24,000 nucleotides of DNA from Shewanella denitrificans OS217 (GCF_000013765.1 NC_007954.1:3540979-3564978); one strand, 5' to 3'; positions 4,073-18,989 are shown, counted from the stretch's first letter. A program made the numbers and translations. Notes: generated from the letters alone by a model not told the origin.

Positions 4073-7000
4073 TTAGTTTTCTACCGGCGAAATAACAAAC
4101 AATAAATCGCCTTGTGAGACCTGCTGACCGTTACTATTGAGAATACGCTCAATACGGTACTTTTGATCTTCAGGGTAAAGTACCGCGCTCTGTCTGTTAA
4201 AGCCTGCTAAGTTCACCTGAGAGAACATCTTCATAGCTTCTGTTAACGCCAATGTCTGCTCTACTGTGACTATATCGCCTTCTTTAACGAAGTCCGCTTC
4301 ACCCGGTGCTGGAGAGGTGTAGAAAATGCCTGCACCTTGTGCCAATACTTTCAACTCATTACTCTCACCAACGCGTAAGGATTCAGTATCCACAGCTTCA
4401 GTGTCTGCTGCCGCTTCCATTTCGGCAATAAGAGCTGGGATATCCAGTTCAGCCATTAAGCGCGGTAAATAGTTAGTGTCATACACGCCTTCATTGAATG
4501 TGGCATCACTTAAGATCAGCTTCAATAATGGAATGTTGGTGGCAATACCACGAATAACAACACTATCTAAATAGTCATACATCTTCTTGACGACATCAGG
4601 CCTATCTTTGCCACGTATGATTATCTGTGCGATTAAGCTGTCATAATATGGCGAGACTTCTTTGCCAGAATCTGCGATAGAGATAATTTCCACATCATCA
4701 CGTTCTGGTAAAATACACTCAGAAATTTTACCAGGGTTGGGGATTAGCTGCAGTATGCCATGACTATCGAGGGCCGCTTTTTCAGCAGTCACTCGCACTT
4801 CCATCGCATAACCTTGCTCGACAGGTTCAAGCTTCTCAATTGAGCGACCCGCTGCAATGTCAAACTGAGCACTCACGATATCGATACCCGATGTCGCTTC
4901 TGTTACTGGATGCTCAACTTGCAAGCGAGTGTTCATTTCCATGAAGTACACTTCATTGGCATCTAAGTTATAGATAAACTCAACGGTACCAGCCCCCATG
5001 TAATCGGTGGCATCACCAAGAGCACGGGTATATTCGAGCACTTGCTGCTTAAGCGCTTCGGGCAGCATGGTAGAACCAGACTCTTCAATGACTTTCTGGT
5101 TATTTCGCTGCACAGAGCAATCACGAATACCCAGCACTTTAGTATTGCCAAACTTATCACGCAGTAACTGCACTTCGATATGACGAAGTGATGTCACGTA
5201 CTTTTCTAAGTACAAGTCGCCATTACCAAATGCGGCAGCCGCTTCGGTGGCCGTCTTTTGGAATAGGCCTATCATGTCTTCAGGACGCTTAACGACTTGA
5301 ATACCTTTACCGCCACCACCTTGCACCGCTTTAAGTAACACGGGGTAGCCGATTTCTGTTGCCACATTAACCGCTTGCTCAGCATTAGTTAAAATGCCAT
5401 GAGATCCTGGCACTACCGGCACATTTTGCTCTTGCGAGGTTTTAATCGCATTGGACTTGTTACCCATGGTCGTCATCGAGTGCACGCTTGGTCCAACGAA
5501 ATTCACACCATTATTGACGCATAACGCCGCAAATTGTGGGCTTTCTGATAAGAAACCAATACCTGGGTGAAGTGCATCAACCTCTTCATATTCGGCCACT
5601 TTGAGGACTGAATAAGCGTTTAGATAACTCTCGTCTGAGGTGTTACCTCCAAGACATACCAGCTTATCGCCTTCTTTAAGCATATCGGCTGGCACGGCTG
5701 TCATATCTGGATCTGAGGCCACCAATACCACATTGATACCGTTATCATGGGCCTTACGGATAAGTTTAACTGCTGTACAGCCACGGGCGTGGATCAACAC
5801 CTTTTTAATCGGCTTCATCAACTTGCGTGGGTCGCTTTGCACTATCTCATCAGTTTCTTCAACCACTTCAGCCGCTAAGCTAGATAAGGATTTAGCAATC
5901 ACATCCTCAACTTTAAGGTTAGAAATCGGCATTAATGGATCAATACCCGCGAGCAATGAATCTAAGTTATCGCTAAATGGATTCAGCACAAGACCCGCCA
6001 TGGCTCCCGGTACTTTAGACAAGTAGTTAGACAAGGTCGCCGTCGAAGGTAAATAGGCTGGCACTACCATTTGGCCGGCAAATGGCATATTTGTGCCTGA
6101 CAAATAATAGGTTTGCACTAATGGATGAGTAACAAAACTTGCCTGTGCACCACCGGTACAGTCACCAAAGCCAAACATCAACACGGGTAATTCATTATCA
6201 CGAATGAAACGGGTAATGCGATCATTCACTACAGCCATAGAGAATAACGCTGCGGCACCTTCTTTGGTCTGCATACCACCTGAGCTGATAAAACAAATCA
6301 CAGGAAGCCTGCGCTTAGCACATTCAATTAATAGCGCACTGAACTTCTCAGCGCTGGCCATATCGAACGCACCCGCCTGGAAGGCCGTATTAGACACTGC
6401 CAAGCCCACACGTAACTTGTTGCCTTCATGAGTAAAGTCAGCAAGTCCTGTGATAAGGCCACAAGGACGGATTTTCTTGTCTATTGCATCTTCAATTGAT
6501 AAACGGAAACCAGGGAAGTTCAGTAAATTAGCCGACATCTTATCGCCATCAATCTCATCGAAATGAGTAAAGAATTTGGCAATAATATTCTCCCAGCCCA
6601 TGGCGCCTTTTTTCTTCTCGTCACGCAACACCTTTTGGATCAACAAATCTTGATAACCCATGGTTAAACGGTTCCAGAAATCCTTACGACGACCAATACG
6701 TACTGGATTAATCGTGCCAGTGTACTTGTCGTGATCATCTTCGCTGTCAAAATACTCGGGTAATAAACGCTCAAAGAAATACGTTAACACGACGAATAAA
6801 CTATCGTTTAACTGTGGGAAACCCACGCTCTTCCACTGTTCAACACGGGTTAATAAATCGGCACGGTTCGACTGTGACATAAAATACTTAAGCCACTTGT
6901 AGAACTTGCTCTTATCTCCCGCCTGTTTGTGAGTGGATAATGCATTATCGATAGATTTGTGCAGCAGTTTATCAACCGAAGCACGGGACAGGCTTTTGGC

Positions 7001-8626
7001 CATCATGGCTTCTTTAGATATCGAGGCTAAATTAGCCACTACACCATCATATAATTCGTTGAAGATAAGGATATTGTGGCATTGCCAAATAAAGTCTTCA
7101 CGCAATTCATCATTCACAATCACATCAAGCACTGTGAGCTGATTCAGCTCAGGCCAAGGCGCTTTTGTTTTCTCGCTGGGTAATGACTCAAGATGCTTAA
7201 TCAGGCCTTTAAAGTTATTGCCTGCGTTGCTCTTCCATCTGTGATAAAGAGACCAACTCACATTAAATAACAGTGCTTTACGGGCTTTTTTATAATTCTC
7301 TTTAGGTTCACCTAAAATAAACCGAGTGATCACATTGCGCTCGGTAGAAATTTCACTTCGCTTGGCAGCAAAATGAACCCAAAGTTTATTTAATTCCTCG
7401 TCATAAACGAGTTTATCTGGATTTGAAAGCCATGCATGGAACACGCGTTCCTGCTCTTGCTTAATACGCTCAAGCAAATCACCTTCAGGCACACTTACCT
7501 TTGAAAGACGACCATACTGCTCTTGAGAAATAGAATGGATACGACTTCTTAGGGTTAAATAACGTAAATAACGGTAGGCGCTGCCGAATAAGTTATGGTG
7601 TGCAGTAGGGCTATCGGCAACCGCTAAACCAGAGTTACTCTCTAGATTTAATAATCCTTTAGAAGGATTTAAGAAGCGCTCTAAGCTGCGATCATAATGT
7701 TCACGTAAATCAGTAGACTCTCGAACAAAATTGACAGCTGCCTTTTCAACGGCTTCAATACCGCTGACAATGGCACGGCGCAGATTGTGCTGACGTTCAT
7801 CGCGATCAGATGGCGAGAAATCAACAATGCCGTCGATGCAACCTGAGTGGTAGAGTTCCTCTGGAGATACGCCTACAGATTTGGCGCATTCCTGCCAAGA
7901 CAGGTTGTATTTACGTGCGATGCTCTGTAATCCCTGAGGCTGGATGGTATTAAAAATACCGTCACGTAAAGACAATAGAATGTTTGCCGCCGCTAAAGGG
8001 ATGGCGCCACCAGAATAGCCAGCACCGATAACGATACCCACGGTTGGCACGTCGACGTTGGCAGATTCTGCGATCGCCTTAGAAATACTATGAGCCTGAT
8101 TTTGACTGTTCGCTATCTCACCCGCGTCCGCCCCTGGGGTATCAATAAGATACACTATAGGCATAGACAATTCTGCGAAGTGACGAATCGCTTTACAGCA
8201 GGCGATATGATGCTCTGGCATCCAGGCACCATTGGCAGTGGTACGCTCTTGAGCAATGAAGCCAACTCTGCGGGTACGAGAGCCGAAATTAAGCTCAACT
8301 TCAGCACGATAAAAAGGCCCTAGGTGGATTTCACTTATGAGCTTACCTTTTAAATCGGCAATGATACGTTTAGCGCCTGGTCGGCTCTTATCTTGTGTCG
8401 GTTGGATCACTTTATTGACATAACCGTCTACATCTAATGCAGCTAAACTTTTTAAGTTTACTTGAATAGCATCATCAGATAACAAACCTTTAATTTCTTC
8501 AGCCAAACTTTGTTTGCTGTGAGCAGGAAATAAAGAAAAATCTTTTGCCAGATGCTCAGCTTGTAAAAAAAGTGGATCTGGGCTTGGTACTTGAGTCATG
8601 TGTTTGGGCTGTTTTTTGCTGGTCAT
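4073..8626 (-). CDS. Multidomain biotin-dependent carboxylase on one 1517-aa chain: carboxyltransferase alpha-like, carboxyltransferase beta-like, biotin carboxylase (ATP-grasp) and BCCP (AccADC type)
   Basis: An AccA-like block lies at about aa 120-240 (PIVYLIDTPGADAG...VIGAGYSGGAIPLAAAN). An AccD-like block lies at about aa 690-850 (PVICFISSGGMQTKEGAAALFSMA...GDCTGGAQASF). The biotin carboxylase part has a glycine-rich loop (GYPVLLKAVQGGGGKGIQVV) and EMNTRLQVEHPVTE. The biotinylation motif EAMKM has its Lys codon at 4229-4231. A GAGGA Shine-Dalgarno lies 8 nt upstream of the ATG at 8626. Confidence 0.9.
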   Translation of the reverse strand: MTSKKQPKHMTQVPSPDPLFLQAEHLAKDFSLFPAHSKQSLAEEIKGLLSDDAIQVNLKSLAALDVDGYVNKVIQPTQDKSRPGAKRIIADLKGKLISEIHLGPFYRAEVELNFGSRTRRVGFIAQERTTANGAWMPEHHIACCKAIRHFAELSMPIVYLIDTPGADAGEIANSQNQAHSISKAIAESANVDVPTVGIVIGAGYSGGAIPLAAANILLSLRDGIFNTIQPQGLQSIARKYNLSWQECAKSVGVSPEELYHSGCIDGIVDFSPSDRDERQHNLRRAIVSGIEAVEKAAVNFVRESTDLREHYDRSLERFLNPSKGLLNLESNSGLAVADSPTAHHNLFGSAYRYLRYLTLRSRIHSISQEQYGRLSKVSVPEGDLLERIKQEQERVFHAWLSNPDKLVYDEELNKLWVHFAAKRSEISTERNVITRFILGEPKENYKKARKALLFNVSWSLYHRWKSNAGNNFKGLIKHLESLPSEKTKAPWPELNQLTVLDVIVNDELREDFIWQCHNILIFNELYDGVVANLASISKEAMMAKSLSRASVDKLLHKSIDNALSTHKQAGDKSKFYKWLKYFMSQSNRADLLTRVEQWKSVGFPQLNDSLFVVLTYFFERLLPEYFDSEDDHDKYTGTINPVRIGRRKDFWNRLTMGYQDLLIQKVLRDEKKKGAMGWENIIAKFFTHFDEIDGDKMSANLLNFPGFRLSIEDAIDKKIRPCGLITGLADFTHEGNKLRVGLAVSNTAFQAGAFDMASAEKFSALLIECAKRRLPVICFISSGGMQTKEGAAALFSMAVVNDRITRFIRDNELPVLMFGFGDCTGGAQASFVTHPLVQTYYLSGTNMPFAGQMVVPAYLPSTATLSNYLSKVPGAMAGLVLNPFSDNLDSLLAGIDPLMPISNLKVEDVIAKSLSSLAAEVVEETDEIVQSDPRKLMKPIKKVLIHARGCTAVKLIRKAHDNGINVVLVASDPDMTAVPADMLKEGDKLVCLGGNTSDESYLNAYSVLKVAEYEEVDALHPGIGFLSESPQFAALCVNNGVNFVGPSVHSMTTMGNKSNAIKTSQEQNVPVVPGSHGILTNAEQAVNVATEIGYPVLLKAVQGGGGKGIQVVKRPEDMIGLFQKTATEAAAAFGNGDLYLEKYVTSLRHIEVQLLRDKFGNTKVLGIRDCSVQRNNQKVIEESGSTMLPEALKQQVLEYTRALGDATDYMGAGTVEFIYNLDANEVYFMEMNTRLQVEHPVTEATSGIDIVSAQFDIAAGRSIEKLEPVEQGYAMEVRVTAEKAALDSHGILQLIPNPGKISECILPERDDVEIISIADSGKEVSPYYDSLIAQIIIRGKDRPDVVKKMYDYLDSVVIRGIATNIPLLKLILSDATFNEGVYDTNYLPRLMAELDIPALIAEMEAAADTEAVDTESLRVGESNELKVLAQGAGIFYTSPAPGEADFVKEGDIVTVEQTLALTEAMKMFSQVNLAGFNRQSAVLYPEDQKYRIERILNSNGQQVSQGDLLFVISPVEN

Positions 8627-9662: not shown

Positions 9663-9696
9663 CAGAGCCCTCTGTAAATGGGCACAAGTGAATAAA

Positions 9697-9719
9697 AAAC
9701 CACTCATTAAGAGTGGTTT
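9697..9719. terminator. Hairpin between convergent genes (LysR regulator and the FapF-like gene), possible bidirectional terminator
   Basis: AAACCACTC-ATTAA-GAGTGGTTT, a 9-bp perfect stem flanked by an A run on one side and T/A-rich sequence on the other. Confidence 0.55.
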
Positions 9720-9726
9720 CAAAATA

Positions 9727-11077
9727 TTAAAAACGGTACGGAAAGCGCAAACTAATCTGATAATCAGGAGAGTCTTCGGTTAAGCCCGCACCAATAGATG
9801 TCACCATAGACAAGTTTTCAGACAAGGCTATCGTTGCACCTATGCCAAGACTTGCCGTATTAGTGTCTGTGCGGGGGATTTTCTCCCACGGCCCACCTAA
9901 TGGTTGTTGCTTAGTTTTAGTATAAAATCTTTGGTTAAAACTCATCGCAAGGCTCATTCTTTCTGATACCGCAAATGCGAGCCCTAAGCTGTAATCCAAA
10001 TAATCACCCAAATCAATTTTTCCCGGACTCAGACCTGGATTTCCCGATAAATCATCAAACTCCTCTTCTCGAGTCCAGCCATAGTTAAGATTAAAAAAGA
10101 CGATGGCAGGGTCGAATGTTTTTGCCAAGCTAAAACCAGTCGATGCACCCCAGACTCCAGAACCTGTAGCCACTTCTGTAGGATAAGTTAAATTACCAAA
10201 TTCAGAGGTTTCTAACGCGATACCAAAAGGATCTTTACCCGTTGGCGCTCTTAGGCGTAGATTCCATACCCAGTCAGGCCAATCGTTTGATTCTGCATTA
10301 ATCCGATAATAGACAGCTGCACTCACGTCGCCAATGCCGCCACCATCAACTTGGGCGGTTTCATATCGTTGGCTAGAATTTCCTTCACCAACGGAATCAT
10401 ATTGGGTCCAGCGAAACATGTAAGGCACACCGATTTCAAACTGCCAATCTTGATTCAAAGTATAGCGAGTGGTGAGATCGATCTGAGTAGTATTGGTTCT
10501 GACACGATCTAAATTTAAATTGCCTAAAAAAATAGCATCTAATGCTAAAAAGCCCCTTAAAATAAGATCCTTTCGGCTGTAATAACTGTAAGTAAAGGAA
10601 GGCTCTATGGTGAGTTTACGAGTGAAGACATTGTGTGTTTCTTGCAGTAAGTCATCCGTACTGCGAGCCCTATCGGGGGCTTTTTTGCGCCCTTCTTGAT
10701 TGGTTGTAACTTGTTGTTTTTTTTGAAACCTCCGAAGCAGGAACTGACGAGGGTCTCTCTATATTCTCATTTGAGGCGACAGCTGTCTCTCGAGTCTGCT
10801 GTGGTTTCGAACCAGATTGTAATTGCGCTTCTTGCTTTAGCACTTGCTGGGCCATCTGATTAATGGCCTGCTGCTGACTTTTTAACTGTTTATTTAATAT
10901 AATGAGTTTTTGCTTTAACGCATTGAGCTCTTGTTCTGAGATTTGGCTTTTTGCCTGTTGGCTAACTTGAGTTTCCGGCAATTGATTTTTTTGAGTAAGC
11001 GTTTCTGCGACTGCACTCTGGATAACTAACATACCAGGTAGTAGAACAACAGTCACAGAGGTCCATTTCATATTCAT
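9727..11077 (-). pseudogene. fapF: FapF-like outer-membrane amyloid secretion channel (signal peptide, coiled coil, linker, beta-barrel), interrupted by a 1-nt frameshift in the 10673-10758 interval
   Basis: The N-terminal frame runs from 11077 to the stop at 10670-10672. It encodes MNMKWTSVTVVLLPGMLVIQSAVA (signal peptide) and a heptad-like region, QELNALKQKLIILNKQLKSQQQAINQMAQQVLKQEAQLQ. The second frame is open from 10758 to 9727. It reads as alternating beta-strand sequence and ends ...ISLRFPYRF, the terminal Phe typical of outer-membrane proteins. It has no start codon or signal peptide of its own before the TTG at 10458. Deleting one nucleotide gives 1347 nt, a 449-codon ORF. Confidence 0.65.
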
Positions 11078-11096
11078 AAATACAGATCCTTGGTCA

Positions 11097-11810
11097 TTAA
11101 AATCCAATGGTTCGTAAATCACGGATTTGTCTGCCAAGTAAACTCGAACTTAAGGTCCCGACAGACATCCCATCGTACCTAATTGTAGACTGATTTATGA
11201 CACCGTGATTAATTCCTTCAATTGCAATGCTTTGTAATAATTGACCATTTCCTTGGCCATAATTCACGCCTTGAGTTGCTTGCCCCGACGCTAGGTTAAC
11301 TTGATAACCTAAAGAACCAGTATTAGCAGAGAACACGCTAGTGCCGTTGCTGCTAATCAGGCTAGTGCCTAATGACAGGGTAACGCCATTAGTCAGTGAG
11401 TCCAATCGACCTTGAGACAGGGTTAAATCGTTCACTGCTAAGTTAGTGTCTCCTGCAATCTGGATCCTTTGTTGAAGCCCAACTGACTGCCCAAGTGCAT
11501 CTAACTCAACCACTTGAGAATTATCAATCTGTCCAGCTTCACTGACATTAATAACAATGGAAGGCTGATTATTAATCCTAGTAAATTCGACTTGCATACT
11601 GACCTGATCTTGAATTCCATTATCTTGAATAAATTGAGTTTGCATTTGAAGGCCGAAATAATAGTCTTGACCATTATCTGTAAATTTCCCCTTCATAGCA
11701 TCAAGCTCGACATCATTAAGTATCTGGCTGCCTTGCAACACAGATAAAGACGGAAGGTCTGCGGCAACCGGAGTAGCAAGCCCAATGAGAAGTATCATAG
11801 TAAGTTTCAT
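11097..11810 (-). CDS. Secreted 237-aa protein in the FapE position of the operon (assignment by position, not by recognised sequence)
   Basis: The signal peptide is MKLTMILLIGLATPVAADL. A strong Shine-Dalgarno (TAGGAGGCAAATATG) overlaps the upstream stop codon. The sequence is Q/N/S/G-rich and contains one degenerate repeat-like stretch (GYQVNLASGQATQGVNYGQGNGQLLQSIAI). It ends in GF. Confidence 0.55.
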   Translation of the reverse strand: MKLTMILLIGLATPVAADLPSLSVLQGSQILNDVELDAMKGKFTDNGQDYYFGLQMQTQFIQDNGIQDQVSMQVEFTRINNQPSIVINVSEAGQIDNSQVVELDALGQSVGLQQRIQIAGDTNLAVNDLTLSQGRLDSLTNGVTLSLGTSLISSNGTSVFSANTGSLGYQVNLASGQATQGVNYGQGNGQLLQSIAIEGINHGVINQSTIRYDGMSVGTLSSSLLGRQIRDLRTIGF

Positions 11811-11819
11811 ATTTGCCTC

Positions 11820-12503
11820 CTAGAGCATATCCGAATATGAAAAACCGAATTCCAACAGCTCAGCATCAGTCATAGGGGCGAAGGGGGCCAAAGCGCGATA
11901 ACTTAACCTAGCTCTAGGGTGCAAGAGCGGATTTTCTCTTTGATAATCGTTACCTATCACCACAAACACCACACCATTCCATTTAGCCATAAAATCTTCC
12001 ATAGTGATTATCCTGTTTCCTAACGCTGGATCGCCTAAATATATTTCTCCAGCCTCATGACGACGAAACACCACAAAATGGCTGTAACCACCATCATCAA
12101 GTAAGACGATTGCAGGGATTTTGAGTAAAGCAATTTCAGCTTCACCTACTTTATAGCCCCGACCTCTATAACCACTTGCCTGCAGATAGCGCTTCATATT
12201 GAGAAGTGAGAAACCTTGCTCTTTAACTAAGTCAATATTGGCATGCTTAAGCATACCTATTAATACTTGCTGCTCTGTAATGTCACCTTGGCCATAACCG
12301 TATTTAAGAACACTTGCAAGGCTTGCTGCACCACAGGAAAAATCTGTTTTTTGCTCAATCACATGTTCAAACTTGCGTTCCCGTATGCTTTGTATTGATT
12401 TAGTGTAAGTCCCCATACCAGGCACCAAGCCTGTTAATGACACCTCGGCAGCTGTGGAATTCGAAGCAAATAAAAGAATGACTAAACATAAAAAAAGTCT
12501 CAT
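11820..12503 (-). CDS. fapD: Stand-alone periplasmic C39-family cysteine peptidase (FapD-like)
   Basis: The signal peptide is MRLFLCLVILLFASNSTAAE. The C39-type catalytic Cys context is QKTDFSCGAASLASVLKYGYG and the His context is GGYSHFVVF. There is no ABC-transporter domain. Confidence 0.75.
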   Translation of the reverse strand: MRLFLCLVILLFASNSTAAEVSLTGLVPGMGTYTKSIQSIRERKFEHVIEQKTDFSCGAASLASVLKYGYGQGDITEQQVLIGMLKHANIDLVKEQGFSLLNMKRYLQASGYRGRGYKVGEAEIALLKIPAIVLLDDGGYSHFVVFRRHEAGEIYLGDPALGNRIITMEDFMAKWNGVVFVVIGNDYQRENPLLHPRARLSYRALAPFAPMTDAELLEFGFSYSDML

Positions 12504-12513
12504 ACAATGAAAT

Positions 12514-12531
12514 CAGGGGGTTGCCCCCCTG
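12514..12531 (-). terminator. GC-rich hairpin in the 53-bp gap between the FapC-like and FapD-like genes (candidate intra-operon attenuator)
   Basis: The minus strand reads CAGGGGG-GCAA-CCCCCTG, followed by ATTTCATTGT and then the ATG of the next gene. The stem is 7 bp, almost entirely G:C. Confidence 0.45.
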
Positions 12532-12556
12532 CCTTATTTCATGAAGGGTTTAAAGA

Positions 12557-13624
12557 TTAAGGTTCAATAACATCAGATGCTGCGGTAATACTTGTCAGTG
12601 CTAGATTGTTAGACTGTAAGTTACCTGTACCACTTGCCATATTCACCCCAATATTACCCGCTGAGTTTTGGAAAGCTGTACCCGCAAGCAAGGTTGAATT
12701 GTTGGTTTTTTGAGCCACTGTTTGAATAAAGAATGGCAATGCGCCACTGACGGTACCCGCTAAATCCAGCTCACCTTCTTCATTAAAGGTCATAACTGAG
12801 CTACCCGTTGGATTTTCAGTATCAAAATCGATATGACCCTGAACTGTGCCATCACCTGAATTATGACCGCCGTCACCTTCTAAAATGACTTGTGGATAGT
12901 AAGGTTCAGCTAAGCCTGAGCTACCGTCATAGCTACCATCGGCATTCAGCGCTAAATTAATATTAATAAATTCAACCGAATCTTCTACTACACTCATGTT
13001 CATAGTGCCGTTATGACCCGTTTGCTGTACGTTTGATACGCTAGCTTCACCCAAGGCGCCACTGTAAGCTGATGCAGCCATGTTATTGGCTTGTAAATTG
13101 TTGTTGCCTGCCGCGATATTCACACCAATGTTACCCGTGGCATTCATGAAGGAAGCGCCATCGATTGTCGCAGTATTCGTTGACGCTTCATTCCAGACAC
13201 CATTAAAGCCGCCTACTTGTGTGCTGAAAATTTCCGCATCACCTGAACCAAATGCAAAATTGGCGTCAATAGAAGCTAAGGCTGCCGAGTTAGTTTGGGC
13301 ATTAAAGTCACCAGAAGCTTGGTTCACACCAATATTACCGCTGGCATTTTCGAAGGCATTATCCGTAATGTGTGCATCATTATCATGATAATAATTACCC
13401 ACTTCATTCATGCTCGATTCCTGCACGTTCTCAACCACGGCCATACCTAAACCGCTGACATTAATGTTGCCGTTAATTGTTACTGTACCTTCATAGTCCA
13501 GTGTTTTAGTGACTTTCACTTTTTTATCTAAATCGACACTGCTGTCTGATTCTGTCATTCCATCTGCATAGGCTGAACTACTCATAATTGCTGCAATACT
13601 AAGTGCTAGAGTGAGTTTTTTCAT
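12557..13624 (-). CDS. fapC: FapC-like secreted repeat protein (candidate major amyloid subunit), three GNIGVN-type repeats
   Basis: The start was chosen at MKKLTLALSIAAIMSSSAYA (signal peptide), with a GGAGG Shine-Dalgarno 8 nt upstream. The track ORF extends 5 codons further, to 13639. The three repeats are ASGNIGVNQASGDFNAQTNSAALAS, ATGNIGVNIAAGNNNLQANNMAASA and SAGNIGVNMASGTGNLQSNNLALTS. They match the FapC repeat core as I recall it from Pseudomonas (SGNIGVNVAAGAGNQQSN). Confidence 0.75.
   Translation of the reverse strand: MKKLTLALSIAAIMSSSAYADGMTESDSSVDLDKKVKVTKTLDYEGTVTINGNINVSGLGMAVVENVQESSMNEVGNYYHDNDAHITDNAFENASGNIGVNQASGDFNAQTNSAALASIDANFAFGSGDAEIFSTQVGGFNGVWNEASTNTATIDGASFMNATGNIGVNIAAGNNNLQANNMAASAYSGALGEASVSNVQQTGHNGTMNMSVVEDSVEFININLALNADGSYDGSSGLAEPYYPQVILEGDGGHNSGDGTVQGHIDFDTENPTGSSVMTFNEEGELDLAGTVSGALPFFIQTVAQKTNNSTLLAGTAFQNSAGNIGVNMASGTGNLQSNNLALTSITAASDVIEP
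12590..12682 (-). repeat. FapC-like repeat R3 (coding, aa 320-350)
   Basis: GTAFQNSAGNIGVNMASGTGNLQSNNLALTS. The coordinates were checked against the DNA: GGTACAGCTTTCCAAAACTCAGCGGGTAATATTGGGGTGAAT on the minus strand, starting at 12682. Confidence 0.8.
13067..13159 (-). repeat. FapC-like repeat R2 (coding, aa 161-191)
   Basis: GASFMNATGNIGVNIAAGNNNLQANNMAASA. Confidence 0.8.
13271..13363 (-). repeat. FapC-like repeat R1 (coding, aa 93-123 of the track ORF)
   Basis: DNAFENASGNIGVNQASGDFNAQTNSAALAS. Confidence 0.8.
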
Positions 13625-13650
13625 CTTCCATTCCTCCATTCGGATGATTA

Positions 13651-14283
13651 TTAATTCCCGCTGGGAAGTTGTAGCGAGAATTGGTTTACGGCGATGTTTC
13701 CATCCCCAGAAATCTGATTAACTTGCATCACGCCCTGTGCATCCAAAAAACTGTCTGGTGCTATGTCGGCATGATATTGAGATGTTTGAAACGAGGGCAC
13801 TGACTGACTCGATACTTGGGTTAAGGCATCATCACTAAGGCCTAAACCAGCTATAGAAGCTAAGGCTATACTGCCTAAGTTGGTTTGGATGTTATTCTGA
13901 CCACTAACTTGATTGATACTTGCTAAACCTTGGAAGTTTGCAAAGGCTTGGCTGTCGATAAATGACACGTGTAATTCGTCATCATCTAGCATGGCCTGAA
14001 ATTCCACAGCATTAGAAAATGCCGCTAAGGGATGTAGATCATTTTTTTGAATTGATTCGATTGAAGTGCTTTGACCAAATACATGGCTATTAGATTGAAT
14101 ATTATGATCGCCAGAAGCCTGGTTAACTGCGGCTCGACCTGCGCCTTGCATAACTTTAGAACTTATAACGCTGGTCTGATCCGCACTAAGCGTCATGGGA
14201 GCAACCAAAAGGCTCAGCATAAAGGCACGCAATACCGGCGCTGAGCCAAGCCTTAATCTAAACATCCTAGTTACCATATTCAT
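13651..14283 (-). CDS. fapB: FapB-like secreted repeat protein (candidate nucleator/minor amyloid subunit)
   Basis: It has three shorter repeats of the same family: AAVNQASGDHNIQSNS, LASINQVSGQNNIQTNLGSIALAS and VMQVNQISGDGNIAVNQ. The signal-like N-terminus is MFRLRLGSAPVLRAFMLSLLVAPMTLSA. The track start at 14322 overlaps the sigma-54 promoter, so an internal ATG (14283, 14277 or 14265) is more likely. Confidence 0.65.
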   Translation of the reverse strand: MNMVTRMFRLRLGSAPVLRAFMLSLLVAPMTLSADQTSVISSKVMQGAGRAAVNQASGDHNIQSNSHVFGQSTSIESIQKNDLHPLAAFSNAVEFQAMLDDDELHVSFIDSQAFANFQGLASINQVSGQNNIQTNLGSIALASIAGLGLSDDALTQVSSQSVPSFQTSQYHADIAPDSFLDAQGVMQVNQISGDGNIAVNQFSLQLPSGN

Positions 14284-14318
14284 AACACAATCCATTCTGT
14301 AAATGACACTAGGTATTA

Positions 14319-14333
14319 GCAACCCTTATGCCA
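14319..14333 (-). promoter_or_regulatory. Sigma-54 (RpoN) -24/-12 promoter upstream of the fapB-like gene
   Basis: The minus strand reads TGGCAT-AAGGG-TTGC (then T). The GG-to-GC spacing is exact relative to the consensus TGGCAC-N5-TTGCW. It lies about 35 nt upstream of the first plausible ATG, next to a gene for a GAFTGA-containing activator. Confidence 0.7.
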
Positions 14334-14520
14334 AGAATGAAAAGTCTATGTCTTCAACTAGATAGATAAATACAAGCTTTTTTTTGTCTTACATTTGAGA
14401 TAGATACAGCATAAGAACATGAATATATAGATTATTATTATTTACCCTACATTCTTATTTTTAAGACGCTATTCAAAATAATCAATGTTGCCAACGAAAA
14501 ATGCCAAGGGATAGAAAGAT

Positions 14521-15837
14521 TCAAAGTTGCAAACCGTGTTTATCCATCAGTCGGTATAAGGTCGCTCTTGAAATTTGTAATTGACACGCCACAACATCGG
14601 CCTGGCCACCAGAAATAAGAATAGCCGACTGAAGCGCCTGTTTTTCTGCGTCATCTTTAAGGCATTTTAACGACATAAAATCTTGTGTCTCCTCACGTTT
14701 ATCGGCGAGTTCTAAATTAAAGGCGTTAATCTTATCCCCATCACTTAACACCACTGCACGACGGACCCTATTTATCAGCTCGCGGACATTCCCCGGCCAA
14801 GAATAATTCAATAAGGATTGTTTAGCGTCTGGGGTTAATTGTTTACTGGTGAGGTCGTATTCCGATAAGTAAGATTGAATAAAATATTTTGCTAAGGGTA
14901 AGATATCATCTCGCCTTTCTCTTAGCGGCGGTGTTTCTAAGGTGATACCATTTAAACGATAATAAAGATCTAACCTAAATTGTCCTTCATCAATGGCCTG
15001 TTCTAGATCGACATGAGTCGCAGCAATAATGCGTACATCCGATGAAATAGCGCCATTCCCCCCCAGAGTATCAAACACCCCTTCTTGTAAGAAACGCAAT
15101 AAATTAACTTGCAACTCTAAGGGTAAATCACCGATTTCGTCCAAGAATAAACTGCCACCATCGGCGAGGGCTATTTTACCTTTTCGGGCACTGGACGCCC
15201 CAGTAAATGCTCCTTTTTCATGACCAAACAACTCTGATTGAACTAAGCCTGCAGCCATTGCCCCACAGTTAACTGCAATAAATGGCCCTTGGCTACGACT
15301 GGATAATTGATGCAGCTTCTTCGCCGCAAGCTCTTTTCCCGTGCCGCTTTCTCCACGAATTAACACTGGGATATCCGTGGGTGCTACCCGAGCAATTTGT
15401 TTAAACAATTGTTGCATGACAAGAGAAGAATGGGTGCTTTCGTCATCGGAGTGAGGGATCACCTCTTTCAGCACACATTGACGCTTAAGTCTCGCTAGAC
15501 CTATTCCGTGACCTAAACATTTTTCGAGCCTTTCGGGGTGAATGGGACTGGTGCAATAATCCCAAGCAAACTGCGCAATAAATGTGGTGATTTCTGTCGA
15601 ATTCAATTGTGACTTGTTGATGAGAACTATCACATGCACACAGGAATCTAGCTCTCGGACCAAGTAATTCGCTTCAGCCATAAAGCTTTCATCTCTAAGA
15701 TCAACTAGGCACAAATGACAGTTAAAAGGCATTGCTTGATAATCGTTATTTTTAATGTAAAAGGCTTGGTATCCTTGGCGAGAAAGCACTTCATTGAGTT
15801 CATCACACTGAAAACCAGCCATCAATAATGGTTCCAT
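14521..15837 (-). CDS. Sigma-54-dependent transcriptional activator (bEBP) with an atypical VpsR/FleQ-like receiver domain, AAA+ domain and Fis-type HTH
   Basis: It has Walker A (GESGTGKE), GAFTGA (GHEKGAFTGASS), Walker B (GGSLFLDEIGDL) and a C-terminal HTH (QISRATLYRLMDKHGL). The N-terminal region (about 120 aa) resembles the VpsR receiver (LCLVDLRD...WDYCTSPI...LGHGIGL). The start was chosen at the ATG at 15837, which has an AAGGAT Shine-Dalgarno. The track ORF begins at a GTG at 15864. Confidence 0.85.
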   Translation of the reverse strand: MEPLLMAGFQCDELNEVLSRQGYQAFYIKNNDYQAMPFNCHLCLVDLRDESFMAEANYLVRELDSCVHVIVLINKSQLNSTEITTFIAQFAWDYCTSPIHPERLEKCLGHGIGLARLKRQCVLKEVIPHSDDESTHSSLVMQQLFKQIARVAPTDIPVLIRGESGTGKELAAKKLHQLSSRSQGPFIAVNCGAMAAGLVQSELFGHEKGAFTGASSARKGKIALADGGSLFLDEIGDLPLELQVNLLRFLQEGVFDTLGGNGAISSDVRIIAATHVDLEQAIDEGQFRLDLYYRLNGITLETPPLRERRDDILPLAKYFIQSYLSEYDLTSKQLTPDAKQSLLNYSWPGNVRELINRVRRAVVLSDGDKINAFNLELADKREETQDFMSLKCLKDDAEKQALQSAILISGGQADVVACQLQISRATLYRLMDKHGLQL

Positions 15838-16274
15838 GATCACATCCTTTCGCAGCATAGTCACGACACCATTGACCTATCTAATTTCAATGGCATTGCG
15901 TCATACTAAGCGATTTTTTGTATCTAGAAATTAATCACTATCATGTTAATAGCTTGATGCCTAAAAGACGTTAAAAATCAGATAGTCTTATTCTTCCCAT
16001 TAGATAAAAGGGGCATCATATCCTTGTCAAATTAATGTTAAGCTACACTGTTCAAGAACAAATGAACAACACTTGTCAAAACAGTTAAAAGAAGCCCTCA
16101 CTTCTTAACTTGATAGTATGGTCCATAACTCGGCTTACAAACATGAAAACGGCGAAAAAATTGACTTTTTATCCTCCCTTTCCGACTTCAATCCGTTATA
16201 ATTTTTTATAAATCAATTGTTTCTTGGTAGCTTTCATCGATTAAGTAGCAGATTTATACACTTAGAGGTCTAAC

Positions 16275-17474
16275 ATGTGCCAATATTTATCATTTAACTC
16301 ATCACTTAAAATATTTGCTTTGTTGCTACTCTGCTTACCCGTTTCGGCACACCCCATACAAACGCAATTAACACCTAATTATCAACAAAATGTTGAAGGT
16401 TTAAGGGCGAATAAAGCGCTACAAGCCATGCCTGATATAGTTCAGCGATACCAAGGGATATATCAGGGATTTAGCCAGCAATATCAACAGAGTCAAAATG
16501 AGTTGCAGCTCACAGCCTTAGCAGCATCGCACGGCACTCGGCTGTGGCAGCAGGCAGTCCGTGATGTTCAGTCAGGATTTGTTGATGATAGACCCTTGTA
16601 CTGGGGCCGTTTGATGATGCAAAACCAGCTAGGACAGCTAAGAGCGGGTTTCTCTGTTGCAAGTTGGCAAAAAGCCATCTTACAAAAAACCATCGAGAAG
16701 ACTTCACGTGGATTGAGCGATATTCAGTTCGACCCCGCCAATGACATTAATGTCTTATTGACTGGATTCGATCCTTTCTTTCTCGATAAAGACATAAGCC
16801 AAAGCAATCCTTCAGGCGTCGTCGCACTGGCTCTTGATGGCTATCGATTTACAGTCAATGGCAAAAAAGTACAAATAGAAACCGCCATGATCCCAGTGCG
16901 CTTTAACGATTTTGACATGGGTCTGATTGAGTCTTTATTAACTCCTTGGTATCGAAGCCGCCAAGTGCAAATGGTGCTGACCATCAGCATGGGCAGAGAA
17001 GGGTTTGACTTGGAAAGATTTCCGGGACTTAATCGCAGTGCAGAGGCGCCAGATAACCTAAACAGTGTAACTCATGCCAGCCCCTCATATCCTAAACCCC
17101 CGCTATTTAACGGCCGTCAACTCATGGGCCCGGAATTTGTCGAGTTCTCTCTTCCTGTGTCAGCGATGGCCGCAGTCAAAGGCCCGTGGAAAGTCACAGA
17201 TAACCGCCGAGTGACTAGCTTAGCTAAAGGCTCATTCGAGGCAAATTCATTAGCGGAACTGGCATCAGAAACCTCAGTTGAAGGTTCTGGAGGGGGATAT
17301 CTTTCCAATGAAATTTCCTACCGCAGCTTGTTACTGAAACAGCAATTGGGCTTAACTATCCCGGTGGGCCACATTCATACTCCTAGAGTCAGTGGCCATG
17401 ATGCACAAAATGAAGCTAAAATACTCGAGCAAGTTCGCGCCATGATTGAGGCTGCGGCAAGTACGATAAATTAA
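16275..17474 (+). CDS. Secreted peptidase C15 (pyroglutamyl-peptidase I)-fold protein with an N-terminal extension of about 150 aa; Ser at the nucleophile position
   Basis: The signal peptide is MCQYLSFNSSLKIFALLLLCLPVSAHP. NVLLTGFDPF matches the Pcp N-terminus (KVLLTGFDPF). LERFPGLN aligns with the catalytic Glu block, GGGYLSNEISY with AGTFVCNHLFY (Cys replaced by Ser), and VGHIHTP with GGFIHIP (His retained). Confidence 0.6.
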   Translation: MCQYLSFNSSLKIFALLLLCLPVSAHPIQTQLTPNYQQNVEGLRANKALQAMPDIVQRYQGIYQGFSQQYQQSQNELQLTALAASHGTRLWQQAVRDVQSGFVDDRPLYWGRLMMQNQLGQLRAGFSVASWQKAILQKTIEKTSRGLSDIQFDPANDINVLLTGFDPFFLDKDISQSNPSGVVALALDGYRFTVNGKKVQIETAMIPVRFNDFDMGLIESLLTPWYRSRQVQMVLTISMGREGFDLERFPGLNRSAEAPDNLNSVTHASPSYPKPPLFNGRQLMGPEFVEFSLPVSAMAAVKGPWKVTDNRRVTSLAKGSFEANSLAELASETSVEGSGGGYLSNEISYRSLLLKQQLGLTIPVGHIHTPRVSGHDAQNEAKILEQVRAMIEAAASTIN

Positions 17475-18179: not shown

Positions 18180-18989
18180 TTGCCTCGTAAGCCAGATTCG
18201 CCTAGTATCCCCAGGCTTGTAATACTGATTATCATCTTAGATTTGGACATTCAATTGCCCCGTATTAAATTCAAATATTTTTCTCTATTTGTAGGTGTTT
18301 TCTGCGCCTTATTCAGCTCTGTCAGTCAAAGCACCGAGCATGCCAGTAGTTTTAGACAAGCCAAGAAAATGGCCCAAGGGATTTATAGCGACTTACCGCT
18401 GGCAAGTTTTTACTGTGGCTGCGATATCAAAATTGACGGAAAAAAATGGCAGCCACAATTTGAGTCCTGTGGTTTTAAAGTTCGCAAACAAGCCAAAAGA
18501 GCGCAACGAATTGAATGGGAGCACTTGGTCCCCGCGTGGGAATTTGGCCATCAAATGCAATGCTGGCAACAAGGTGGCCGTAAATTTTGCAGTAAAAACA
18601 GCCCAGAATTTAATAAAATGGAGGCTGACTTACATAACTTAGTGCCCGCCATTGGTGAAGTGAACGGCGATCGCAGTAACTACCGATTCAGTGAATGGAA
18701 CGGTAAAGCTAATCAGTATGGTCGTTGTGATATGTTAGTGAATTTTAAAGACCGAAAAGTGCAGCCTCCTGCAAGTTCCCGTGGTGCCATAGCTAGAGCT
18801 TATTTTTACATGCAACAACGTTATGGCTTGCGAATTTCCAGCAGCCAATCAAAGTTATTTTCGGCCTGGGACAAACAATATGCGGTCAATAGTATAGAAT
18901 GCAAACGTGATAGATTAATTGCCCAATCTCAGGGGAATCACAATGAATTTGTTCAGAAATCCTGCCTCAAACTCGGCTTAATAAACTAA
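18180..18989 (+). CDS. endA: Periplasmic endonuclease I
   Basis: [66 protein letters not shown] and QGNHNEFVQ align with E. coli EndA. The true start is probably the internal TTG at 18255, which gives the signal peptide [26 protein letters not shown]. No in-frame ATG precedes the signal peptide. Confidence 0.88.

Follow-up and report, generated by a model that had tools for sequence, protein, structure and literature searches.

A probable FapA-less fapBCDEF functional-amyloid operon with a frameshifted fapF in Shewanella denitrificans OS217

Introduction

Does the five-gene cluster at positions 9727-14333 of a 24,000-nucleotide chromosomal stretch of Shewanella denitrificans OS217 (GCF_000013765.1, NC_007954.1:3540979-3564978; hereafter the window, in which all positions are counted) encode a functional amyloid of the Fap type, and what becomes of amyloid export when the gene for its secretion channel is split in two? 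The analysis presented here indicates, with high confidence, that the locus is a chromosomal fapBCDEF functional-amyloid operon without fapA, in which a run of eight adenines (A8) within fapF is expected to impair export.

Loci of this kind have been catalogued before. Table S1 of Dueholm et al. (2013, PLoS One; PMC3792158) lists FapA as absent from OS217, FapB to FapF as YP_563970..YP_563965, and carries the remark 'Insertion between fapE and fapF' for this strain. In the same survey, Shewanella was among the genera deviating from the fapABCDEF arrangement, the loss of fapA being the commonest deviation (PMC3792158). A 2025 review that included a GTDB screen counted 1602 fap clusters, more than 90% of them with fapABCDEF or fapBCDEF synteny, and placed Shewanella among the two genera in which curli and Fap most frequently occur together (PMC12822426). 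The OS217 locus is already on record as a system of a known kind. An earlier reading of the window, made from its sequence alone (the sequence-only reading), had presented it as an uncharacterised system, a description that cannot be kept given the entry in the 2013 table and the naming of the genus in the 2025 screen.

What is added here is modest, namely a corrected reading of the frameshifted fapF, the architecture of sigma-54 promoter, enhancer-binding protein (EBP) and palindromes in front of the operon, and a hairpin after fapC. These findings leave the existing picture of the Fap mechanism unchanged.

Identification of the five Fap proteins

The five proteins were searched against NCBIfam profiles, for which the equivalog score cutoffs are 190 bits for FapB, 195 for FapC, 330 for FapD, 250 for FapE and 700 for FapF. 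The best match of every protein was the corresponding Fap model: FapB at E=3.4e-12 (46 bits), FapC at E=3.1e-46 (158.5 bits, model positions 9-316 of 321), FapD to the C39_FapD model at E=5.4e-75 (251.5 bits, with FilB as the runner-up at 112 bits), FapE at E=2.4e-11 (43 bits, model positions 27-247 of 247) and FapF, searched with its barrel fragment alone, at E=3.7e-76 (257 bits). Judged by these homology statistics, chance is no concern for the assignment. The Fap identity that the sequence-only reading had proposed was therefore upheld for every gene by matches to NCBIfam models, PDB sequences, Pfam families and the FapF fold, including the profile matches to FapB, FapC and FapF on which that proposal depended.

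A local Pfam-A scan returned no family for FapB, FapC or FapE, the Pfam copy used being older than the FapBC family PF27129. PF27129 is, however, precomputed for proteins identical to FapB and FapC on other contigs. Amongst the OS217 records, FapC is exactly ABE56246.1, and the two fragments of fapF are exactly ABE56243.1 (Sden_2965) and ABE56242.1.

In the major subunit, FapC, a regular-expression search for the strict core GNIGVN.A[AS]G..N.Q.N gave exactly three matches (residues 96, 164 and 323), and the repeats are separated by a first linker of about 33 aa and a second of about 120 aa. FapC matches the FapC sequences of the cryo-electron microscopy entries 9NQD and 9U4U at E=4e-9 through these repeats. 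A total of 598 homologues were found, with PF27129 on all 120 that were listed, and neither the arrangement in three repeats nor the N/Q/G residues of the ladder varied among 36 FapC homologues. In FapB, the three repeats AVNQASGDHNIQSN, SINQVSGQNNIQTN and QVNQISGDGNIAVN follow the degenerate form [AS][AIV]NQ.SG..NI..N, and the GNIGVN core was matched by 0 of the 3 in a regular-expression search. Thus, the three repeats that had been claimed for each of the two subunits were recovered in both, whereas the shared GNIGVN core was recovered in FapC and not in FapB.

FapD matched the Pfam family Peptidase_C39 (E=6.8e-18), in agreement with the earlier description of a stand-alone, Sec-exported C39 peptidase. 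Its sequence includes a signal peptide and the catalytic residues Cys57, in FSCGAAS, and His142, in YSHFVVF. In Pseudomonas, the FapD cysteine is needed for FapC secretion (PMC5557850). FapE is composed of 11% Q, 11% G, 10% S and 7% N, and the position of its gene was kept in all loci compared.

A separate observation concerns the second linker of FapC (about residues 196-315, window 12680-13040), which holds a conserved island of the form YP[EQ][IV]W ... GH[IL]DFD ... F.E.G...L.G. Across the same 36 homologues, which come from Shewanella, Aeromonas, Metallibacterium, Stenotrophomonas and others, H254 was invariant and H264, D266 and D268 were at least 90% conserved. AlphaFold2 (AF2) placed long strands in this island, with predicted local distance difference test (pLDDT) values of 72-79. 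Fap linkers are highly variable in published descriptions, and the conserved His/Asp motif might be a folded or metal-binding surface element.

The FapF channel and its reading frame

In the window, fapF consists of two open reading frames (ORFs), at 10670..11137 and 9727..10458. The N-terminal frame, which encodes the signal peptide, the coiled coil and a linker, stops at 10670 to give the 135-aa product Sden_2965, and the frame of the barrel continues to 9727. When the A8 run at 10717-10724 was shortened by one base, the two frames joined into a protein of 449 aa. Adding one A led into the wrong frame and did not join them, and no intact fapF reading frame was found in the window sequence.

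In the repaired protein, the signal peptide is followed by a helix (residues 43-88), a linker modelled with low confidence, the plug helix (138-147) and a beta-barrel with a C-terminal Phe. Its residues 128-449 aligned with the FapF sequence of crystal structure 5O65 (E=4e-78). The AF2 model, built with 32 homologues, had a mean pLDDT of 75, with most of the barrel above 85. In a Foldseek search it superposed on 5O65 and 5O67 with a template-modelling (TM) score of 0.95 and a root-mean-square deviation (rmsd) of 1.7-1.9 A; the 18 top PDB matches were all FapF entries (5O65, 5O67 and 5O68; TM 0.93-0.96, rmsd 1.4-3.5 A), and the nearest other fold was a COG4313 channel with TM 0.70. The structural comparison that the sequence-only reading had suggested for the repaired barrel therefore came out in favor of FapF. 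As for its description of the fifth gene as one encoding an outer-membrane protein, the architecture stood for the repaired protein, but the gene itself is not intact, being split at A8 into two ORFs, a state that its mention of a repaired protein had already acknowledged.

Residues that mutagenesis has shown to be critical for secretion (PMC5557850) were located by alignment with 5O65. The plug salt bridge E98/K401 of 5O65 corresponds to E146/R444 here, the lumen salt bridge E111/R157 to E158/R204, and the turn phenylalanine F103 to F151. With the exception of R444, all of these (E146, E158, R204 and F151) were invariant or nearly so in the 32 FapF homologues. In Pseudomonas, FapC is no longer secreted when fapF is deleted, and its secretion also depends critically on the coiled coil and the plug (PMC5557850).

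The state of the A-tract was compared across public data. The window shares A8 with the Logan assembly of run SRR9438243; over 9.4 kb the two are 100% identical. The assembly GCA_965139545.1, 99.99% identical over 19.4 kb, has seven adenines (A7) and an intact 449-aa protein annotated 'transporter'; over these 19.4 kb, the tract is the only indel, accompanied by one single-nucleotide polymorphism (SNP). A7 is also found in a distinct strain (SRR28403165, 99.5% identical). At the position of the tract, the next relatives encode SKNQQV or an unrelated linker, and no long run occurs there in other species. Because A7 is present in both a near-identical assembly and a distinct strain, and the tract is absent from relatives, A7 is taken as ancestral and A8 as a derived one-base insertion carried by two separate data sets. 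The A-tract is not a conserved feature, and its interpretation as a conserved programmed recoding site was rejected on account of its absence from other species.

The corrected frame also bears on the 2013 catalogue. The 'Insertion between fapE and fapF' in its table corresponds to the N-terminal 135 residues of FapF, so that the extra gene listed for OS217 is the front end of fapF.

The lone SNP between the window and GCA_965139545.1 lies at window position 18761 (C in the window, T in the other assembly, read on the minus strand). It falls in an ORF at 18180-18989, which is an Endonuclease_1-family gene according to its position in locus L001.

Operon layout and gene coordinates

An ORF scan confirmed five consecutive, co-directional genes on the minus strand, as the sequence-only reading had described. 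The intergenic gaps from fapB through fapF measured 26, 53, 9 and 19 nt, inside the range of 9-53 bp that it had given. Start codons were set from signal peptides, from conserved ribosome-binding sites followed by ATG, and from gene calls on identical public contigs. The ORF of 223 aa that can be drawn for the first gene begins at TTG 14322 and overlaps the promoter; since this TTG falls inside the promoter, the ORF is too long and does not mark the real start of fapB. Coordinates of the genes and signals are collected in Table 1.

Between the EBP gene and fapB, there was no ORF of at least 60 aa that could represent fapA, the largest being 25 aa. The absence of fapA is a recognised variant, found in 6 of 16 genera including Shewanella (Dueholm 2013, PMC3792158), and it therefore does not exclude membership in the Fap family.

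Table 1. Positions of the fap genes and associated signals in the window.
Feature	Position	Strand	Description
sigma-54-dependent EBP gene	14521..15864	-	VpsR, AAA+ sigma-54 interaction domain, helix-turn-helix (HTH)
Distal palindrome TCTTAAAAATAAGA	14453..14466	-	putative upstream activating sequence (UAS) 1; ~134 nt upstream of the -24 element
Proximal palindrome TCTCAAATGTAAGA	14387..14400	-	putative UAS 2; ~68 nt upstream of the -24 element
sigma-54 (-24/-12) promoter TGGCATAAGGGTTGCT	14318..14333	-	~35 nt upstream of the fapB ATG
fapB	14283..13651	-	210 aa; secreted; minor or nucleator amyloid subunit; three degenerate repeats
fapC	13624..12557	-	355 aa; secreted; major amyloid subunit
GC-rich stem-loop CAGGGGGG-CAAC-CCCCCTG	12514..12531	-	between fapC and fapD; terminator scan
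fapD	12503..11820	-	227 aa; Sec-exported stand-alone C39 cysteine peptidase
fapE	11810..11097	-	237 aa; secreted Q/G/S/N-rich accessory protein
fapF	11077..9727	-	split by +1A frameshift; 449 aa if repaired; outer-membrane amyloid secretion channel
A8 homopolymer (T8 on the + strand)	10717-10724	-	frameshift site, in the disordered FapF linker
Stem-loop AACCACTC-TTAAT-GAGTGGTT, then T-run	9691..9718	-	3' end of operon; read from the sequence

Two hairpins accompany the operon. A strong hairpin after the fapC stop codon was found at the same place in eight Shewanella loci, in Vibrio and in Halopseudomonas; its stem sequences differ and it often precedes a T-run, with its position kept across the three genera. 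It is probably a partial terminator or an mRNA stabiliser that favors the fapBC transcript over that of fapDEF. The stem-loop at the 3' end was not reported by a GC-biased terminator scan. As read from its sequence and location, it is a likely intrinsic terminator common to fapF and the convergent LysR-family gene. An Rfam scan of the window returned no RNA family at gathering score, and hence no cyclic di-GMP (c-di-GMP) riboswitch or other known RNA.

Promoter, palindromes and the adjacent enhancer-binding protein

The pattern TGGCAY-N5-TTGCW has a single match in the window, the promoter of Table 1, where 0.09 matches are expected by chance. Its GG-N10-GC framework also precedes fapB in the Moritella locus and in each of the eight other Shewanella loci, the bases of the spacer differing between loci. 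The element likewise stands before fapB in Vibrio sinaloensis, and in Halopseudomonas formosensis before fapA. Altogether, the sigma-54 promoter was conserved in 13 loci from four genera.

Upstream of the promoter, the 14-bp palindrome TCTYA-N4-TRAGA occurs at the two positions of Table 1 and nowhere else in the window; the same pattern with an N5 spacer had no match, the actual spacing being N4. Most Shewanella loci have both palindromes, at offsets of about -134 and -68 (L003, L004, L005, L009, L010 and L011), and L006 and L008 have the proximal one only. We infer that the two palindromes are putative binding sites of the EBP.

The EBP is encoded directly upstream of fapB and co-directionally with it, and this placement was the same in eight Shewanella species and in a Moritella metagenome-assembled genome (MAG). 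Pfam matches were Sigma54_activat (E=3.7e-68), VpsR (E=3.6e-10), AAA_lid_14 and HTH_8, and the protein has an intact GAFTGA motif between an N-terminal VpsR domain and a C-terminal HTH. On an identical contig, the gene caller placed its start at 15837 (438 aa). A sigma-54 EBP gene also adjoins the fap clusters of V. sinaloensis and H. formosensis, with 47-50% identity; in Vibrio, the EBP includes a VpsR domain and its gene neighbours a GGDEF gene, and the Halopseudomonas gene lies downstream in reversed orientation. From its domains and conserved placement, the OS217 EBP probably activates the fap promoter, and sensing of c-di-GMP by this protein is assumed here.

In P. fluorescens PF07, control of fap by RpoN and BrfA has been shown experimentally, and BrfA senses c-di-GMP (PMC9207406; PMC13101488); Guo 2024 (Microbiol Res) is cited there for this control. 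The different regulation that the sequence-only reading had expected for this lineage was not supported, because a sigma-54 promoter together with an adjacent EBP gene is the layout of the RpoN/BrfA circuit. The conservation of both elements at fap in Shewanella, Moritella, Vibrio and Halopseudomonas suggests that this circuit is the ancestral form of Fap control.

Flanking genes and other fap loci

A scan of a genome collection with a single-protein query returned nine loci, Pseudomonas loci not being sampled directly. The order of C15-like gene, EBP gene, fapBCDEF, LysR-family gene and 1517-aa carboxylase gene was the same in eight Shewanella species. Identity across Shewanella was 81-97% for the flanking LysR and carboxylase proteins and 37-90% for the Fap proteins, a distribution that fits vertical inheritance of the locus with fast-evolving secreted subunits. 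Dueholm et al. (2013) had reached the same conclusion (PMC3792158). Fap operons thus appear as a regular, vertically inherited part of Shewanella chromosomes.

On the downstream side, window 4073-8626 (minus strand) is a single ORF of 1517 aa in which carboxyltransferase (Carboxyl_trans, ACCA), biotin carboxylase (Biotin_carb_N, CPSase_L_D2, Biotin_carb_C) and biotinyl domains are fused. Single-chain biotin-dependent carboxylases of this size are unusual in bacteria; this one was found beside fap with 83-96% identity in all Shewanella species examined. On the upstream side, window 16275-17474 (plus strand) encodes a secreted protein of 399 aa, divergent from the EBP gene, with a PA0049_N domain and a weak match to pyroglutamyl-peptidases (C15). 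This C15-like gene was considered as a member of the Fap system and rejected; it is syntenic in Shewanella but absent at the Moritella, Vibrio and Halopseudomonas fap loci.

Other genera provided further observations. At 1277 aa, the FapC homologue of V. sinaloensis (locus L013, 3634-7467) is in line with the many-repeat FapC that the 2013 survey noted for Vibrio. At the same locus, a gene for a GGDEF diguanylate cyclase (11775-12869) directly follows that of the VpsR-domain EBP, an arrangement that fits c-di-GMP control. In the Moritella sp. MAG (L007, 2688-9272), the order is rearranged to EBP-fapD-fapB-fapC-fapE-fapF, and the sigma-54 promoter is situated between fapD and fapB, immediately before the latter.

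Discussion

The homology, gene order and channel fold described above suggest the following course of events. The VpsR-domain EBP would bind the two upstream palindromes and activate the sigma-54 promoter before fapB, and subunit mRNA is probably enriched relative to machinery mRNA by the post-fapC hairpin. FapB, FapC, FapD, FapE and FapF all have Sec signal peptides as read from their sequences, and would cross the inner membrane by this route. By homology to Pseudomonas, where this was shown, cleavage by the periplasmic C39 peptidase FapD would be required for secretion, and FapF would act as a trimeric, helix-plugged, 12-stranded barrel through which unfolded FapC, FapB and FapE are exported. 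Outside the cell, the three imperfect N/Q/G/A-rich repeats of FapC would stack into the amyloid core, with FapB as a likely nucleator or minor subunit.

Several points weigh against this account. None of the five Fap proteins reached its NCBIfam equivalog cutoff, and the similarity of FapB and FapE to the Pseudomonas models is weak. AF2 modelled the FapC monomer with low confidence (pLDDT 62), and in a Foldseek search with this model, the sole PDB match with E<0.001, the fibril 9U4U (E=1.3e-4), had a poor TM of 0.24. No experimental work on any Shewanella Fap protein was found in the searchable literature, which agrees with the statement of the sequence-only reading that Fap experiments were confined to pseudomonads. 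Additionally, the parts given to the palindromes, to c-di-GMP sensing and to the post-fapC hairpin are deduced from conservation, and the A8 status of fapF was read from assemblies. The subcutoff scores might be taken to mean that the locus is a secreted repeat adhesin or pilus-like system of Fap ancestry that forms no amyloid, and such a view could also draw on the matches of FilB to FapD (E=3e-32) and of FilC to FapF (E=7e-14), and on the name 'Adhesin' that UniProt gives to FapC homologues. However, the Fap models far outscored those of the Fil family for both proteins (251 against 112 bits for FapD, 257 against 52 bits for FapF), and a FilB/FilC pilus system was rejected on these NCBIfam scores. 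The three repeats with their N/Q/G ladder are invariant in the 36 homologues, the secretion-critical residues of FapF are conserved, and the fapBCDEF order is canonical. We consider a non-amyloid system extremely unlikely in the face of these observations; because all scores lie under the equivalog cutoffs, the five proteins are homologues that have diverged from the Pseudomonas-centred models.

For the frameshift, the reading we prefer is a derived insertion that compromises the channel. A8 fapF would yield a periplasmic coiled-coil fragment of 135 aa, together with a barrel that has neither start codon nor signal peptide. Runs of at least eight adenines are slippery for RNA polymerase and ribosomes. 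Since export of FapC in Pseudomonas is governed by FapF, its coiled coil and its plug, the A8 allele should block export, and fibre formation with it would be lost or reduced to what transcriptional or ribosomal slippage can rescue. Alternatively, the extra base could be a homopolymer error of sequencing or assembly, in which case living OS217 would have an intact fapF and a fully functional operon. The difference does sit in an eight-base homopolymer, and the near-identical GCA_965139545.1 carries A7 and the 449-aa protein; but A8 was present in two separate data sets, the OS217 complete genome and the Logan assembly of SRR9438243, and all 13 other homopolymers of at least seven bases within the 19.4 kb agreed between assemblies, which makes an error very unlikely. 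The tract could also be a functional switch, either through phase variation between A7 and A8 or through a set, low level of expression by transcriptional or +1 ribosomal slippage on AAA-AAA-A. That the sole indel between two almost identical genomes is this very tract, that both states occur in public data, and that a +1 slip of tRNA-Lys on the run would yield exactly the SKKQQV of the intact protein are all in keeping with a switch. Yet only S. denitrificans-like sequences have the tract; their nearest relatives encode SKNQQV or an unrelated linker there, and other species lack a long run. The few assemblies compared show just two states, and seven to eight bases are short for an efficient contingency locus. 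A switch is thus highly unlikely. The same low credence applies to its more specific form, a contingency locus in fapF at which slipped-strand mutation would switch populations between export (A7) and no export (A8), transcriptional or +1 ribosomal slippage providing a leaky rescue of the latter; if true, this would be the first phase-variable functional-amyloid secretion channel.

With a derived, frameshifted fapF in its reference sequence, OS217 is a poor choice for tests of Shewanella Fap unless an A7 stock is used.

Comparison with known systems

The closest counterpart is the catalogued fapBCDEF of OS217 and S. woodyi (PMC3792158, Table S1), in which the OS217 entry is the same locus with the same proteins. 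The experimentally studied fapABCDEF of Pseudomonas (Pseudomonas sp. UK4, P. aeruginosa and P. fluorescens; Dueholm 2010/2013; Rouse 2017, PMC5557850) shares with it the B-C-D-E-F order, the three imperfect N/Q/G/A repeats in both FapB and FapC, a Sec-exported C39 peptidase FapD with catalytic Cys and His, and a FapF in which an N-terminal coiled coil and a disordered linker precede the plug helix and the 12-stranded barrel, with the salt bridges and the turn Phe. In contrast to the Pseudomonas system, OS217 lacks fapA, and its fapF is frameshifted. Its FapF is about 36% identical to that of Pseudomonas, all of its proteins score under the NCBIfam equivalog cutoffs, and its second FapC linker has about 120 aa compared to about 22 aa in Pseudomonas sp. 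UK4. Within FapF, F102 of Pseudomonas is replaced by Val and the second 'PTG' motif reads ATG.

In its regulation, the locus resembles the RpoN/BrfA circuit of P. fluorescens PF07 in having a -24/-12 promoter before the first fap gene and a sigma-54 EBP encoded beside the cluster, and the layout of the Halopseudomonas locus (L012) is that described for brfA. In OS217, however, the EBP gene precedes fapB in the same orientation, whereas brfA is downstream and reversed. The OS217 protein also has a recognisable VpsR N-terminal domain, and its resemblance to BrfA is one of layout.

Curli (csgBAC/csgDEFG) follows a shared logic, in which a Sec-exported repeat subunit and a nucleator pass a dedicated outer-membrane channel and amyloid assembles outside the cell in a nucleation-dependent manner (compare PMC12822426). 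The proteins themselves are unrelated, and no homology to CsgA, CsgB or CsgG was found in any search. Unlike the nonameric CsgG of curli, the Fap channel is a trimeric, plugged barrel, and export through the Fap pathway requires a protease.

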